From a virus, in IMG/VR virus record IMGVR_UViG_3300049218_000083, positions 69,861 to 133,860 of that record: DNA of 64,000 nt; one strand, 5' to 3'. The position numbers and the translations under genes were made by a program. Shown piece by piece: positions 10,998 to 63,550 of the stretch (positions are counted from its first letter, which is position 1; each line of letters starts with the position of its first letter). The notes under the pieces were generated by a model. That model was not told the origin of the DNA. It worked only from the letters and a program-made list of their open reading frames with translations, and did no database searches.

Positions 10998-11846
10998 ATG
11001 TCTGAAGCCTTACATTCATTGTTCGTATCACCCAAGAATCCTTGTAATTTTGACCATGTATTGAAACGTGGGCAATATCAGAACATAAAGAAATTAGATG
11101 TCGACACTCTCGAATTGGCTGGATTGATTTCAACAGAATTGAAAACAACCACTTCGTTGGCCTTAACAGTTATTCGTAACAACCGATGCCAACGATGTTT
11201 GACTTGTAACAAATTGTTCGTTGATATAACAAAGTCGACATGTAGCAATCGATGCAGCGTAATCAAACAACGAAAAGAATTGAAAGCTGATCCAATAAGG
11301 CTAAAGATCTTTAGCAACAATCTTCATGAAATCGTGACAAATCATTGGGCATCGTTAGATGATGAACAATTCAAGAAAAGAGCAAAGATGGGTGGATATG
11401 TGAAAACATTAAAAGGATTCTACGAACCAAAAAATCCAAGCAAGTATCGCGGTGATGTTAAATCTATCGTGTATAGAAGCAGTTGGGAGCGTCGCTTCAT
11501 GGTTGTTTGTGATGAAACACCTGAAATCGTTGGCTGGTCATCTGAAGAACTCATCATTCCATATCGCGATCCATCAAAAGATAACACGATTCATCGCTAC
11601 TTCCCCGACTTCGTCATTCATGTAAAGCAACCAAACGGCATCGAGAAACGAGTCGTCGAGATCAAGCCATACAAAGAAACCCAGATGCCTGTAAAGAAGA
11701 AGCGAGTCACCAAGGCATACATGGAGTCAGTCTACACCTATGTAAGGAACCAAGCCAAGTGGGAGGCTGCGCGAGCTTACTGCGCGTCTCAGGGAATGAA
11801 GTTCGTGGTGCTAACCGAAAATGAGTTGTTTCCAAAACCGCGATAA
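10998..11846 (+). CDS. gp4: Head completion nuclease gp4 with ~130-aa Cys-rich N-terminal extension
   Basis: PKNPSKYRGD..VYRSSWERRFM..HRYFPDF..VEIKP..NQAKWEAA. Confidence 0.85.
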   Translation: MSEALHSLFVSPKNPCNFDHVLKRGQYQNIKKLDVDTLELAGLISTELKTTTSLALTVIRNNRCQRCLTCNKLFVDITKSTCSNRCSVIKQRKELKADPIRLKIFSNNLHEIVTNHWASLDDEQFKKRAKMGGYVKTLKGFYEPKNPSKYRGDVKSIVYRSSWERRFMVVCDETPEIVGWSSEELIIPYRDPSKDNTIHRYFPDFVIHVKQPNGIEKRVVEIKPYKETQMPVKKKRVTKAYMESVYTYVRNQAKWEAARAYCASQGMKFVVLTENELFPKPR

Positions 11847-11853
11847 ATAGTGG

Positions 11854-12375
11854 ATGGCAACCTCTAAGAAGAAACCCTCCGTCAATAATGCTCGCGAATC
11901 AGTTCGTTGGTACACGCGCATTATCAAGAACCTGAATATGAAAGAGATCCGCAAGGAAGGCATTGGTGATGTCGTCAGCGGTCCTCATATGGGTAAGATG
12001 TGCTGTTTCTATTACGACCCGAAACTGAAGCGTGAACTTCCTTACTACGATCGTTTCCCATTGGTCATCCCTCTTGATCCAAAGCCTGATGGTTTCCTTG
12101 GATTGAACCTGCATTATCTTCCACCGGCTGCACGTCAAGTATTGTTTGAACAGCTGTTCGCAGTTCGTGCTCGTAGGGACTTGACCCAAGAGAACCAAAT
12201 TCTTATGACGTATGCTGTGCTTAAGCATACCACCAAATTCCCAGGCTGGAAGGATTGCATCAAGCGATACCTTGCCAACCACTATCGTTCCAAGATTATC
12301 GAGATCGACCCAATGTCATGGAAACTTTGCGTCGCTCTACCAACAAGTCAATTCCAGAAAGGTTCACCATACTAA
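11854..12375 (+). CDS. gp2: DNA end protector gp2
   Basis: YDPKLKRELPYYDRFPLV..FLGLNLHYLPP. Confidence 0.9.
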   Translation: MATSKKKPSVNNARESVRWYTRIIKNLNMKEIRKEGIGDVVSGPHMGKMCCFYYDPKLKRELPYYDRFPLVIPLDPKPDGFLGLNLHYLPPAARQVLFEQLFAVRARRDLTQENQILMTYAVLKHTTKFPGWKDCIKRYLANHYRSKIIEIDPMSWKLCVALPTSQFQKGSPY

Positions 12376-12377
12376 TC

Positions 12378-13238
12378 ATGGCATTCCTGTTCAAAGCCTT
12401 CGGCGCAAATATCGACCTTGAAAACAACGGGAATGCTTCTATTAAGATTCCTGGGTTGCCAGGCATCACCTTGTTGAGTGGCAATGGTCCAAGTGTAAAC
12501 AAGTCATTCAGTATCAACAACTTCACGCAAAATCTTAACAGACACAACGAAACAGCACGTACAGACAAGTTTGACGTGTCCATGATTCCTCCAGCGTCTG
12601 TTGCCTCTTACATCGGTATGTCACCAGCTGATATGATGAAAGGATTGTCACTTCAGTGCGAAGTGTCTGAATTGCCTTCTCGTGATATTCAGATGACCGA
12701 GTACATGACCCACGCATTCATCCGTCGTGTTCCTCATCAGAACCAATATGGCACAGCGAACTTCACGTTCATCTGCACTGGTGACTTGTGGGAAAAGAGA
12801 ATGTTCGATGCTTGGTTGGATTTGATGGTTCCGGTTCAGACTGGTCTTGTCAACTATCCGGTCGACGCTAACGGACAGCGCATGTACGAAACCGACATCA
12901 TCTGTAACCAGTATGATTCCATGGGCACGTTGATTTACGCAGCAACATTGATAGACGCTGTACCAACCAACATGGGCCCATTGAACCAGTCCTGGGACAA
13001 TGATTCCATCCACCGTCTAAGCATGACTTTCATGTTCCGTAAGTGGACAACGATCGACACGTCATTCGCTACATCTACAACGTTTGCTGGTTCAAACCCA
13101 GGCATCCTACCTTCAGCTGTCAGCGGTATCGTAAGCACGGTTGCTCAGGCTGCTACACAGGTGCAGGATGCTCGTGCTATCATTTCTGGCGGAGTGCCAA
13201 TTAACAGTGCGTTGAATGCTATCAAGAACAACATATAA
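12378..13238 (+). CDS. gp54: Baseplate tail-tube initiator gp54-like
   Basis: LQCEVSELPSR; EKRMFDAWLD; FMFRKW; start re-assigned to MAFLFK. Confidence 0.75.
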   Translation: MAFLFKAFGANIDLENNGNASIKIPGLPGITLLSGNGPSVNKSFSINNFTQNLNRHNETARTDKFDVSMIPPASVASYIGMSPADMMKGLSLQCEVSELPSRDIQMTEYMTHAFIRRVPHQNQYGTANFTFICTGDLWEKRMFDAWLDLMVPVQTGLVNYPVDANGQRMYETDIICNQYDSMGTLIYAATLIDAVPTNMGPLNQSWDNDSIHRLSMTFMFRKWTTIDTSFATSTTFAGSNPGILPSAVSGIVSTVAQAATQVQDARAIISGGVPINSALNAIKNNI

Positions 13239-13253
13239 GCAAGGTGAATAATT

Positions 13254-14009
13254 ATGAAACTGCCTCAAATCTCACTTCCCACTTACGAAGTGAAGCTCCT
13301 ATCTAAGAAGGATCCAGTAAAGATCCGTCCGTTCACGGTTCGTGAAGAGAAGCTCATGCTCATGGCTGTCGAAGCCAAGGATCTAGAGTCAACGGTTAAT
13401 GCTCTCAAGCAAATCATCAGCAACTGCGTGATCGGTGAGTTTGACGTTGAAGAAATGCCAATGATCGACATGGAAATCATGTTCCTCAACCTTCGAGCTC
13501 GTTCTGTTGGTGAAATCGGCACCCAATTCTACAAGTGCAAAAACGAAGTAACAATCAATCCTCCACCAAACCCAGACAAGACAACCACGAAAGAGTGCGG
13601 CATGTTGTTGGAAATTCCAATCAACTTCCTTGAAGTGCCTATCGTAAACAAGGACACAGAGACGAACATCAAGTTCACGGATGAGATCGGCGTCAAACTC
13701 AAGTTCCCATCCTTCTCTCTGATCCGCAAGCTTACCAAGGCCAACCCAGAAAAGGATGACATGGAATTGATCATTGCGACTAACTGCCTCGATATGATCT
13801 ATGACAAGGATACAGTCTACCATGCAAAGGATTGTACGCAAGTCGAACTGGAAGAATTCATCCTTGGTCTTCGAACAGAAGACTATGACAAGATCAAGGA
13901 ATTCTGCAACAAGGTCCCAAAGACCCAACTGATCTCCAAGAAGCAGTGTAAGAAGTGTGGATATGAACACACCTTCACGCTGGAGGGTATCGAAGATTTT
14001 TTCGTGTAG
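13254..14009 (+). CDS. gp26: Baseplate hub assembly chaperone gp26
   Basis: KIRPFTVREEKLMLMA; LNLRARSVGE; C-term CKKCGYEHTFTLEGIEDFF. Confidence 0.9.
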   Translation: MKLPQISLPTYEVKLLSKKDPVKIRPFTVREEKLMLMAVEAKDLESTVNALKQIISNCVIGEFDVEEMPMIDMEIMFLNLRARSVGEIGTQFYKCKNEVTINPPPNPDKTTTKECGMLLEIPINFLEVPIVNKDTETNIKFTDEIGVKLKFPSFSLIRKLTKANPEKDDMELIIATNCLDMIYDKDTVYHAKDCTQVELEEFILGLRTEDYDKIKEFCNKVPKTQLISKKQCKKCGYEHTFTLEGIEDFFV

Positions 14010-14221
14010 GATTTTGTCATGATTCGCTAGAGGCTCAGTTTCGACTGAACCATAGCTTGCTGTATCATCAGAAAATTGATTTCCGAATGTTTGATGATAT
14101 GATTCCTTGGGAGCGTGATGTTCATATCGCTATGATCATCAAGAACGTCGAAGAGGACAATGAGAAAGAGAAGCTGAAGCAACAAGAACGAAGAGCGCGT
14201 AGGGCAGCTGGTAGACGATAA
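13997..14221 (+). CDS. gp51: gp51 baseplate hub assembly catalyst frame; no suitable own start, probably reached by -1 frameshift from gp26
   Basis: Manual translation: CHDSLEAQFRLNHSLLYHQK..MIPWERDVHIAM; in -1 frame from T TTT TTC at 13997-14003; stop overlaps next ATG. Confidence 0.75.
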   Translation, partial: FFRVGFCHDSLEAQFRLNHSLLYHQKIDFRMFDDMIPWERDVHIAMIIKNVEEDNEKEKLKQQERRARRAAGRR

Positions 14222-16071
14222 TGGCAATTAAAAAACCAACAGTAATGACACAACAATCTGGACCTTCTAATCCAGACGCGAAGTTGACAACACCATCTGG
14301 TATGTCAATCAACGAAATCGCATTGCTGTTGAAAAGTCAGGACCCAACCATCAAGTTTTCTGACGCCAAGAAGAAAGCGCAAGAACTCAAGGATGCTGAA
14401 AGCACTGCCAAGTATGGACGAGGTTGTGAGCTCGGTAACAAAATCATCGGCGGTGTAATCGGTAAGAAGCTGGCAGCCAAAGTCACCAAAGCATTCACAC
14501 CGAAAGACAAGATCAAAGAAGCCAAGTCAACGTTGAAGGATTTCAGCGAAAAGCAAATGGCTGAGCAGATGAAACCACAGCTTGAGATGCAGAAAATCAA
14601 AGTGGATCTTCAAACCATCCTTGGTAAGCTTGACACTCTCAGCAGCGAAATCAAAGAACTCAAGACCAGTTCCGAGAAGGTTGCTGCCGCACCTGTAACA
14701 GCACCAACAGCCAGCCCAGCATACGCAGCCAAGGTTGTGCCAATGAAGGCTGAAAAGAGCGATGACGAACTTGACCTTGAGAAGATCATCAAGAAACAGT
14801 TCCCTGACTTCAAGAAGGCTGATATTGACAAGTTGGTTGCGTCAACCAAGCATCTCGAGACGTTGGAAGCCAAGGCATTGGCTGTTCTTCAGGCTCGTGG
14901 TCGTGCTGAAAAGATTCCTAAACCTCAAGTCGCGCCGCAGGTAGCCAAAGTCCAGGCTGATATGAAGCAGGAGAATGAGGATCGTCGAACTGCTGAAATG
15001 AAAAAGCAGAACGAACAGAACAAAACGACTGAGAAGCCAACGGTTGAACAGGTCAAGCCTGCACCAGCTACTCCGCCACCTCCTCCAAAGGTTGAAGAAG
15101 TTAAGCCACCAACACCGGCTGTTGCTGCTAAGTCAGCTGACACGGATGAAGATCAGAAAGAAGCTCGTGAGATCCTCAACGCTCAGAAAGAAGAGAAGGC
15201 TCGCAAGGAGCAAGAGAAGCGTGAAGAGGCTATCGAAAAGACTCTGGAAGATATCAAGAAAAAGCTGGCCGACAACGGTATCGCTGACTTGATTGCTATG
15301 GCTTTGGGTGCTTTGGGATCCAAGCTGTTCAAGCTGATTGGCAAAGGCATGTGGACATTGGTCAAACTGGCTGGTAAGGCTGCTTGGGAGTCAGTCAAGC
15401 TTGCTTGGAAGGGTGCTAAAGCATTGTTCAGCAGCCTCAAGAATCTCTTGAAGGGTGGAGAGAAAGCCGGAGCCAAGGCTGGTGAAAAGGCTGCTGAGAA
15501 AGCTGCCGTCAAGGGTGGTGAGAAGGCTCTCGAGAAAGCTGGTGAGAAAGTTGGTGCTGAAGAAGCAGCTAAACTCGGCGGCAAAACCTTGGCGAAGTCA
15601 TTCCTGAAGAAGATTCCTTTGATTGGTGCGGTTGCTGGTTTGGCATTCGCTGCTTCCGATTTGCTTGAAGGCGACACGGTTGGTGCCGGTTTGGATGCCG
15701 CATCCGGACTTGTGTCTATCATCCCTGGCGTCGGTACAGCTGCATCCATTGCGTTGGACGCAACCAAGGCTGCACGTGACTTTGGTGTAATCGGTGACAA
15801 GGCTGGAACCATGTCGGCGAAGTCTGACAAGGCTGACGCTCTCGCGAAGGCTAATGAAGACAAGGATGAGATTCCAGACATGGACGATGATAGTGATGGT
15901 CCAAGTCAGCCTGTAGTTGTACACCAAGACAACCGCAAAACGATTGTAGCAGGCGGTGGTGATTCAGGCTCTACCATAATCAAGGTGCGCAACGATGAGC
16001 CTTCAGTCGCTGGCTTGACCGCATCCCTGTTTGACCATCCTGTGTCATACGGTGCCGTCTATCGTATGTAA
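14221..16071 (+). CDS. Tape-measure/baseplate hub gp29-like protein
   Basis: Ala/Lys/Glu-rich helical protein; KKIPLIGAVAGLAFA..GDTVGAGLDAASG; AGEKAAEK repeats; follows gp26/51. Confidence 0.6.
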   Translation: MAIKKPTVMTQQSGPSNPDAKLTTPSGMSINEIALLLKSQDPTIKFSDAKKKAQELKDAESTAKYGRGCELGNKIIGGVIGKKLAAKVTKAFTPKDKIKEAKSTLKDFSEKQMAEQMKPQLEMQKIKVDLQTILGKLDTLSSEIKELKTSSEKVAAAPVTAPTASPAYAAKVVPMKAEKSDDELDLEKIIKKQFPDFKKADIDKLVASTKHLETLEAKALAVLQARGRAEKIPKPQVAPQVAKVQADMKQENEDRRTAEMKKQNEQNKTTEKPTVEQVKPAPATPPPPPKVEEVKPPTPAVAAKSADTDEDQKEAREILNAQKEEKARKEQEKREEAIEKTLEDIKKKLADNGIADLIAMALGALGSKLFKLIGKGMWTLVKLAGKAAWESVKLAWKGAKALFSSLKNLLKGGEKAGAKAGEKAAEKAAVKGGEKALEKAGEKVGAEEAAKLGGKTLAKSFLKKIPLIGAVAGLAFAASDLLEGDTVGAGLDAASGLVSIIPGVGTAASIALDATKAARDFGVIGDKAGTMSAKSDKADALAKANEDKDEIPDMDDDSDGPSQPVVVHQDNRKTIVAGGGDSGSTIIKVRNDEPSVAGLTASLFDHPVSYGAVYRM

Positions 16072-63035: not shown

Positions 63036-63550
63036 TTCTTGTATCCCAATTCCTTCAGTCTCTTGATCGTAGTCTTGGCATCCTTGTGGAATATACCAAT
63101 ACCACCTTTCCTCGTCCATTCATCGATATTCTGTTGCTTATCATCGATCAGAATATTCGGTTCTTTTGTGTCACTATTTATGGCAAATTTCTGCTTGTCT
63201 TTACGCTCCACAATATGGATCCTATCGCTAGGAATCATCACATGCGCGCGAAGCCAATTCTTCTTGCCAATAACCGCAACACTCCTCGCTTCTTTGCTCC
63301 ACATTGGGTACGCAGACAGAATCGAAGGATTCCAATATTTGATGTAACCCCAGTATGTATTGAAGTCAGGCATCGGTTCCAATGCCGTCCAAAACTCTAC
63401 CGTGTCACACGCTTCAGCATACTTCTTGTTTCTCGGACCCTGTGCCATGTTCGAAAACGCAGCACTCTCAATATTCATTCCAATTTTTTCTGACGCAGCC
63501 TTGCTGAAATTGCAAGTCACGCCATCCATGTCTGAAAATATCATATACAA
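63032..63550 (-). CDS. HAD 5'(3')-deoxyribonucleotidase-like
   Basis: DMDGV; FWTALEPMP; LIDD..NIDEW..GGIGIFH. Confidence 0.85.
   Translation of the reverse strand: MYMIFSDMDGVTCNFSKAASEKIGMNIESAAFSNMAQGPRNKKYAEACDTVEFWTALEPMPDFNTYWGYIKYWNPSILSAYPMWSKEARSVAVIGKKNWLRAHVMIPSDRIHIVERKDKQKFAINSDTKEPNILIDDKQQNIDEWTRKGGIGIFHKDAKTTIKRLKELGYKK

Follow-up and report, generated by a model that had tools for sequence, protein, structure and literature searches.

A predicted programmed -1 ribosomal frameshift close to the gp26 gene's 3' end in T4-like phages would append a gp51-type domain to a baseplate hub chaperone

The gene for gp26, a protein of the baseplate hub assembly chaperone family, very probably contains a programmed -1 ribosomal frameshift near its 3' end in an uncultured T4-like phage (genome of 166.7 kb, 98% complete; IMG/VR record IMGVR_UViG_3300049218_000083), from which both gp26 and a longer form, gp26-51, would be made. 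The analysis covers a stretch of 64,000 nucleotides of that record (positions 69,861 to 133,860), referred to here as the window, and all positions are those of the window. We propose from the sequence that most ribosomes would read GAT TTT TTC GTG and stop at TAG to release gp26 (251 aa; plus strand, 13254..14009, stop TAG at 14007-14009), while a fraction would slip back by one base with two Phe-tRNAs on the slippery heptamer T_TTT_TTC at 13997-14003 and then read the -1 frame to the TAA at 14219-14221, giving a gp26-51 of 322 aa that ends in a domain of the gp51 C-terminal type. The slip would probably be aided by a Shine-Dalgarno (SD)-like GGAGGG lying 9 nt 5' of the heptamer, as in dnaX, and the zero-frame stop just beyond the heptamer may contribute to it.

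The gp26 coding region ends in GAA GAT TTT TTC GTG TAG. Within it the heptamer (plus strand) takes the form X_XXY_YYZ in the phase of the zero frame, with TTT in the P-site and TTC in the A-site, and stands one codon before the stop; the letters and the phase reported for it by the initial annotation are correct. The -1 frame is open from stop to stop over 84 codons (13967 to 14221), crosses the heptamer and reads ...FFRVGFCHDSLE...MIPWERD..., the part following the two phenylalanines being RVGFCHDSLEAQF...DDMIPWERD.... The extension itself, a Gp51_C-type domain, occupies 14003..14221 on the plus strand, with base 14003 read twice, and its 72 post-slip codons added to gp26 residues 1-250 make up the 322 aa of the predicted long form. 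A tandem -1 slip is expected to produce the junction peptide EDFF/RVGFCHDSLE, in agreement with the peptide already put forward. For the -1 peptide there is a match in phrog_634 'baseplate hub assembly catalyst' (gp51), at an E of 1.6e-14, and another in the last 55 positions, at the C-terminal end, of phrog_150, which is the gp26 family. No Pfam match to this domain was found in the scan of the window, and the name PF28602 Gp51_C comes from a precomputed label on a relative, L108, a contig of ENA ERZ28548078. Runs of six T are rare in the window, where TTTTTTY occurs five times on the two strands of the 64 kb compared with 34 +/- 7 times in dinucleotide shuffles, an approximately 7-fold depletion, and that one is nevertheless kept at the end of gp26 was counted in favour of the frameshift. 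These sites include 13997, 19276, 23665 and 63484, those outside gp26 lying antisense to minus-strand ORFs. The site at 63484-63490 is inside a 5'-3' deoxyribonucleotidase gene and is the only one outside gp26 that was compared with a protein family.

It had been suggested that a TTTTTY at the end of gp26 and the -1 phasing of gp51 should be looked for in other T4-like phages, and this comparison was positive. When gp26 proteins were clustered at 60% identity, 36 of the 39 clusters had NNT TTT TTN ahead of the gp26 stop by 0-12 codons, and 26 had it ahead by exactly one codon. Half of the sample of IMG/VR contigs was retrieved by a peptide pattern that included DFF, whereas isolate lineages were sampled regardless of the motif, and 10 of the 13 isolate lineages contain the heptamer. 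The heptamer together with the -1 phasing is seen in the cyanophages Syn1, S-BM3 and S-WAM1, in a KVP40-like vibriophage, Vibrio phage Bakedbeans and Pseudomonas phage pf16, in the Aeromonas Ceceduovirus (AS-sw) and Stenotrophomonas phage Mendera, and in the Rhizobium/Agrobacterium Pootjesviridae RL38J1 (with TTT TTG) and OLIVR5, the named isolates having NNT TTT TTY followed by 1-3 codons and the stop. The same arrangement occurs in approximately 80 IMG/VR contigs, and the lineages that share it are only 20-35% identical in gp26. A tblastn search with the -1 peptide matched 464 phage records in which the homology begins 5' of the annotated gp26 stop and in which the small gene is annotated as a stub of 40-60 aa or not at all; a blastn search of the region against phage records gave no match. 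The exceptions without a heptamer are the T4-type phages, Kuttervirus PhaxI (L016) and Vibrio phage K364 (L025). In the latter two a small ORF with an MPW motif and its own start lies in the -1 phase directly 3' of gp26, and it looks like the slip has been replaced by separate initiation in these lineages.

Because Asp-Phe-Phe (D-F-F) is itself conserved, the choice among synonymous codons was needed in order to separate codon constraint from protein constraint. All 33 of the D-F-F clusters use GAT TTT, with a P of 1e-16 when pooled and 1e-19 with per-gene usage, against a codon background in the same gp26 genes of f(GAT)=0.63 and f(TTT)=0.51. The remaining Phe codons of the window gp26 are TTC 11 times and TTT twice. 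Where Ser takes the place of Asp before the two phenylalanines its codon is TCT or AGT and so still ends in T. The A-site (Z) codon varies, being TTC in 25 of the 36 clusters, TTT in 10 and TTG in one.

A further question is whether the domain could be translated from a start of its own. In the window the -1 frame opens after TGA at 13964-13966 and the next ATG, GTG or TTG is the TTG at 14057, which is 20 codons past the slip and already within the conserved domain, the first ATG being 30 codons past the slip. Initiation at this TTG would remove the conserved H..L..N-F part, and there is no ATT, ATC or ATA before 14057. The earlier observation that the gp51-like frame has no ATG before its conserved N-terminal part was thus correct, and independent initiation of that part in the window is excluded. 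Nineteen of the 36 clusters, including that of the window, likewise lack any ATG, GTG or TTG both in the open -1 frame 5' of the heptamer and in the first 8 codons 3' of it, and in L008-L014 a -1-frame TGA lies immediately 5' of the heptamer. The sequences read from Pseudomonas phage pf16 and Aeromonas phage AS-sw are among those that give the small frame no start. The stretch over and past the gp26 stop is conserved as a -1-frame protein. The -1 peptides can be aligned across relatives from FF onward, and a count of the variable sites between the gp26 stop and codon 20, made inside six sets of close relatives, gives 21, 15 and 47 on -1-frame positions 1, 2 and 3 (chi-square p=3e-5), so the -1 frame is under purifying selection. 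These results make it very unlikely that no recoding takes place and that the small frame is an independent short gp51, reached by re-initiation or from a non-canonical start, with the heptamer a by-product of D-F-F. That explanation can draw on the separate 40-60-aa 'gp51' ORFs annotated in databases, on lineages in which an ATG overlaps the stop of gp26 as TAATG or TGATG, and on PhaxI and K364, which use a start of the small ORF itself, but it leaves GAT TTT invariant beyond what the amino acid motif needs, and T4 gp51 shows that the domain can function when joined to the C-terminal end of a gp26-like body.

Programmed frameshifting and a separate start may also coexist, and in the lineages of phi-Grn1 (L018), Mendera (L021), RL38J1 (L020) and the cyanophages L001-L003 gp26, gp26-51 and the free small domain may all be made. 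An ATG 4-6 codons past the slip, which some lineages have, may likewise allow the free domain to be produced. Many of the database 'gp51' ORFs (for example P0001, P0002, P0005 and P0008) begin with MW or VW 14 codons before FF. This start corresponds to a -1-frame ATG or GTG followed by TGG and is generated by the Lys-Cys-Gly codons (AAA TGT GG) of a zinc-ribbon-like motif in gp26, so that it is probably an annotation artefact, and in the window this route is shut by the TGA at 13964-13966. A shared-word search for longer proteins containing the small domain found none. An exhaustive profile search with the -1 peptide gave 1655 hits, the best 150 of which were almost all stand-alone calls of 50-100 aa, and the longer proteins among those 150 were rejected as natural fusions, being out-of-frame read-throughs or contig artefacts.

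The element that we favour as a stimulator lies upstream. The SD-like GGAGGG (plus strand, 13982..13987), which spans the codons Leu-Glu-Gly, is a candidate 5' stimulator of the dnaX type, and its duplex with the anti-SD, at -9.8 kcal/mol, is the strongest in the gp26 gene, SD-antiSD pairing in the host being assumed. In 29 of 36 clusters its equivalent ranks among the top 10% of anti-SD matches of the gene. Codon choice at this position is also skewed, the Glu codon of GGAGG being GAG in 19 of 21 clusters against a background of 30% (P=1e-8) and the preceding Leu codon ending in G in 19 of 29 clusters against 36% (P=1e-3). From this comparison GGAGGG probably acts as a stimulator of the slip and is a better candidate than the hairpin TCAGT-TTCG-ACTGA at 14035-14048 pointed out in the initial annotation. 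That hairpin is present, as the core of a weak stem-loop at 14026..14056 (plus strand; minimum free energy -13.3 kcal/mol for 14004-14060), and the four closest relatives retain it, with both partners altered in 2-3 of its pairs. It starts 28-31 nt past the heptamer, and as the stimulator in the window it was set aside for its distance of 31 nt and a z-score of -0.67 against shuffles. Across the family downstream structure is somewhat enriched (mean z of -1.1, with 9 of 36 clusters below -2), and strong hairpins are found 5-7 nt downstream of the heptamer in a subset (L042, L092, L046 and L024). The SD-like element, the spacer of approximately 10 nt, the homopolymeric X_XXX_XXZ heptamer and, in part of the gp26 family, the downstream hairpins recall the dnaX gene (gamma/tau) of E. 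coli, which has the same SD-like arrangement. With dnaX it is the shorter product that arises from the shift, and a strong hairpin is indispensable, whereas here the shifted product is the longer and the window has no significant hairpin.

Since the element is a homopolymer of six T (13997-14002) the same two proteins could come about by transcriptional slippage, in which RNA polymerase would add one U on the run and a minority of mRNAs would encode the fusion in one frame. The run reaches 7-9 T in L007, L030 and L032, the conserved T at the wobble position of Asp, which lengthens it, is also predicted by a polymerase slip, and a low yield may suffice if the ratio of the products resembles that of lambda G:GT, which is about 30:1 (PMC5009743, where the -1 frameshifts of tail chaperones are reviewed). 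In 25 of the 36 clusters, however, Z ends in C and the run is left unextended although the synonymous TTT is available, while GGAGG and the hairpins at 5-7 nt are ribosome-directed elements that have no role in such a mechanism. Six T are in addition short for efficient transcriptional slippage. We consider it very unlikely that the polymerase rather than the ribosome is the source of the long form.

Homopolymers are also prone to error, and the small ORF could in principle be a decaying remnant or the result of an assembly error, with nothing functional made from the -1 frame. The long-read contig L108 can be cited for this, as in it a split gp26 reads into the small domain without a change of frame. 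An identical run in an identical phase is found again, however, in approximately 80 independent contigs and in 10 isolate genomes obtained on different sequencing platforms, and because of this recurrence assembly error is excluded; with purifying selection on the -1 frame as well, this explanation is extremely improbable. A contig from the source sample agrees with the window without differences, though it is not independent, and only this probable source contig spans the heptamer of the window so that the T count comes from one source. In two other moss-metagenome runs, in which about half of the words of the region occur, contig coverage breaks off at 13964 and begins again at 14114, so that it misses exactly the site of the slip and the first part of the -1 domain, perhaps through strain variation or an assembly break. 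In L108 (1178-2079 of the 191.6 kb contig) gp26 is split into ORFs of 108 aa and 192 aa near an A7 run, and the second ORF continues in a single frame through TGC TTT TTT CAG into the gp51-type domain. L108 is either a natural in-frame fusion or a case of homopolymer errors in a long-read assembly.

A number of points weigh against the programmed ribosomal frameshift. D-F-F is conserved as amino acids, T4 having E-F-F encoded by GAA TTC TTT, so that the T-richness of the site is partly a protein constraint, and the prevalence among IMG/VR contigs is biased by the DFF-containing pattern with which half were fetched, although codon choice is unaffected by this. In phi-Grn1, Mendera, RL38J1 and several cyanophages an ATG is present at or just after the gp26 stop. 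The SD-antiSD pairing of the proposed stimulator is assumed for the host, and at the usual spacing of 5-9 nt the window has no significant RNA structure (z of +0.33 over 45 nt). Finally, the sequencing runs that contain the window are DNA contigs of moss metagenomes with no RNA run listed, and the slip in this phage or its relatives is predicted from DNA sequence.

The predicted pair would correspond to gp26 and gp51 of T4. The window gp26 matches PF12322 T4_baseplate (E 2.1e-49; 168.6 bits, where the curated cut-off is 24.5, over positions 2-218 of the 219 in the model) and phrog_150 baseplate hub (E 9e-53), is a clear homologue of T4 gp26 (hhalign probability 99% with T4-type gp26), and is the one PF12322 gene in the 98% complete genome. 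T4-type gp51 (250 aa) matches PF12322 as gp26 does, at residues 1-201 with an E of 6e-59, and the -1 peptide profile can be aligned to gp51 residues 200-245 from the junction Phe onward (hhalign probability 84%, E 8e-6). As gp51 thus consists of a PF12322 body and the aligned C-terminal segment, T4 gp51 would be the one-frame equivalent of gp26-51 and T4 gp26 the short form, the T4 proteins of 208 aa and 249 aa making a short and long pair like that of gp26 and the predicted gp26-51. The arrangement differs in that T4 has two separate, divergently transcribed paralogues and no heptamer, the codons being GAA TTC TTT, whereas the window has one gene and a predicted slip. In T4-type phages gene 26 is followed by gene 25, with gene 51 separate and divergent. 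In the window the order of a PF12322 body followed by the Gp51 C-terminal domain would be colinear with gp51 by way of the predicted slip, the domain being in the -1 frame. Cyanophage and marine vibriophage gp51 have been described as lacking the first ~200 aa (Sullivan et al. 2010, PMC3037559), and the predicted frameshift would supply the missing ~200 aa and thereby explain the truncated marine gp51. Leiman et al. 2010 (PMC3004832) count both gp26 and gp51 of T4 among the hub assembly chaperones, and gp51 is essential for assembly, has no known function and is absent from the particle (PMC3004832).

The initial annotation had likened gp26/gp26-51 to lambda G/G-T, and support for this comparison comes from T4 gp51 as the long form in one frame, from the hub chaperones of T4 and from folds resembling tail assembly chaperones (TACs), the fold scores being borderline and the tape-measure identity of the next gene unsupported by sequence. 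An AlphaFold2 model of the window gp26 has a pLDDT of 91, and a Foldseek search of the full-length model against the PDB gave nothing at E <= 0.001. An exhaustive structural alignment of gp26 residues 1-95 with VIA-align placed 3fgx (Z 7.7), the HK97 TAC 2ob9 (Z 7.3) and B. subtilis YqbN 3klu (Z 6.8) ahead of a next row at 5.2. Foldseek with a model of the N-domain (pLDDT 86) ranked the same entries first at non-significant E values of 0.18-0.29, and this model also matched AlphaFold Database clusters that carry the name 'tail assembly chaperone' or 'phage tail assembly protein', at a TM of 0.43-0.65. Each of these scores alone is within the range of chance and the scores agree with one another. 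A search of the gp26 sequence profile against PDB chains and Pfam at a loose threshold found no TAC family.

In lambda as here a short product and a C-terminally extended one are made, in the present case by prediction, through a -1 slip that precedes the stop of the short form by a few codons, directly 5' of a long gene of tape-measure size, and the T4 counterparts act in assembly without becoming part of the virion. The pair differs in belonging to PF12322, which is without sequence similarity to the Pfam TAC families, in that gp26 is about twice the length of a typical TAC with an extra C-terminal part carrying a Cys motif, and in its heptamer, T_TTT_TTY with an SD-like 5' element where lambda has G_GGA_AAG. 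Levin in 1993 and Xu, Hendrix and Duda in 2004 reportedly described the lambda gpG/gpGT proteins and the -1 frameshift that is conserved in the tail assembly chaperone genes of long-tailed phages. Among phages with contractile tails P2 (E/E+E') and Mu also have a -1 slip in a chaperone gene adjoining the tape measure gene, a case said to be treated by Xu in 2004. The P2 and Mu chaperones are small canonical TACs, unlike gp26. Taken together the agreement of the TAC folds, the gene order (a tube-initiator-like gene, gp26, the -1 domain and a 616-aa gene) and the genetics of T4 make the G/GT analogy the best reading, and we lean modestly towards gp26/gp26-51 resembling the lambda G/GT tail assembly chaperones by fold, gene order and logic. 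With only slight preference we extend this to a G/GT system of the whole T4 superfamily that has gone unrecognised, in which the ancestor would have had a single frameshift gene that Tequatroviruses duplicated into gp26 and gp51 and that cyanophages, KVP40-like phages and the Aeromonas, Pseudomonas, Stenotrophomonas and rhizobial T4-like phages would have kept.

The genes on either side of gp26 fit that order to different degrees. Upstream lies a tube-like gene (plus strand, 12255..13238) with a match to phrog_45 tail tube (E 9e-25), and the neighbours at the same position in phi-Grn1, OLIVR5, RL38J1 and AS-sw are annotated as 'baseplate tail tube initiator'. Downstream the gene for the 616-aa protein (plus strand, 14221..16071) is a tape-measure or gp29 analogue only by position and size. 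This protein has no match in Pfam or NCBIfam, no demonstrable similarity to T4-type gp29 by BLASTP (E 0.41) and a predicted model that is poorly ordered, and an atlas lead to PF25671 T4_Tape_measure scored only 0.81 with no sequence similarity found. The name 'tape-measure-like' given to it at the outset comes down to position, size and a poorly ordered model, no likeness to T4 gp29 being demonstrable. The -1 frame ends in TAA and the 616-aa gene begins with ATG, the two overlapping as TAATG at 14219-14223. Shifted ribosomes would end on the next start, which may couple the long form to translation of the tape-measure-sized gene. Elsewhere in the window a gp4-type head completion protein (10998-11846; phrog_218 at residues 136-279) has an extra Cys-rich N-terminal part of approximately 135 residues with a weak match to an HNH-endonuclease family (phrog_1271, E 0.002).

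Literature searches found no published report of a gp26/gp51 frameshift in T4-like phages or cyanophages, and a 2016 review of recoding mentions no baseplate, T4-like or cyanophage case. To our knowledge T4-like phages are treated as lacking a tail-chaperone frameshift. A conserved frameshift of this kind is a hallmark of long-tailed phages, and here it would be present in a superfamily in which it has gone unrecognised. If this is true hundreds of T4-like genomes are mis-annotated, with 'gp51' stubs of 40-60 aa or a gap hiding a trans-frame protein of 300 aa, and the 2010 puzzle of a marine gp51 without its first ~200 residues would be solved. The site would also represent a natural bacterial -1 signal, U_UUU_UUY with an SD-like 5' enhancer, that could be used in recoding studies, and gp26 and gp51 of T4, whose functions are still vague, would become testable as a pair of the G/GT type.

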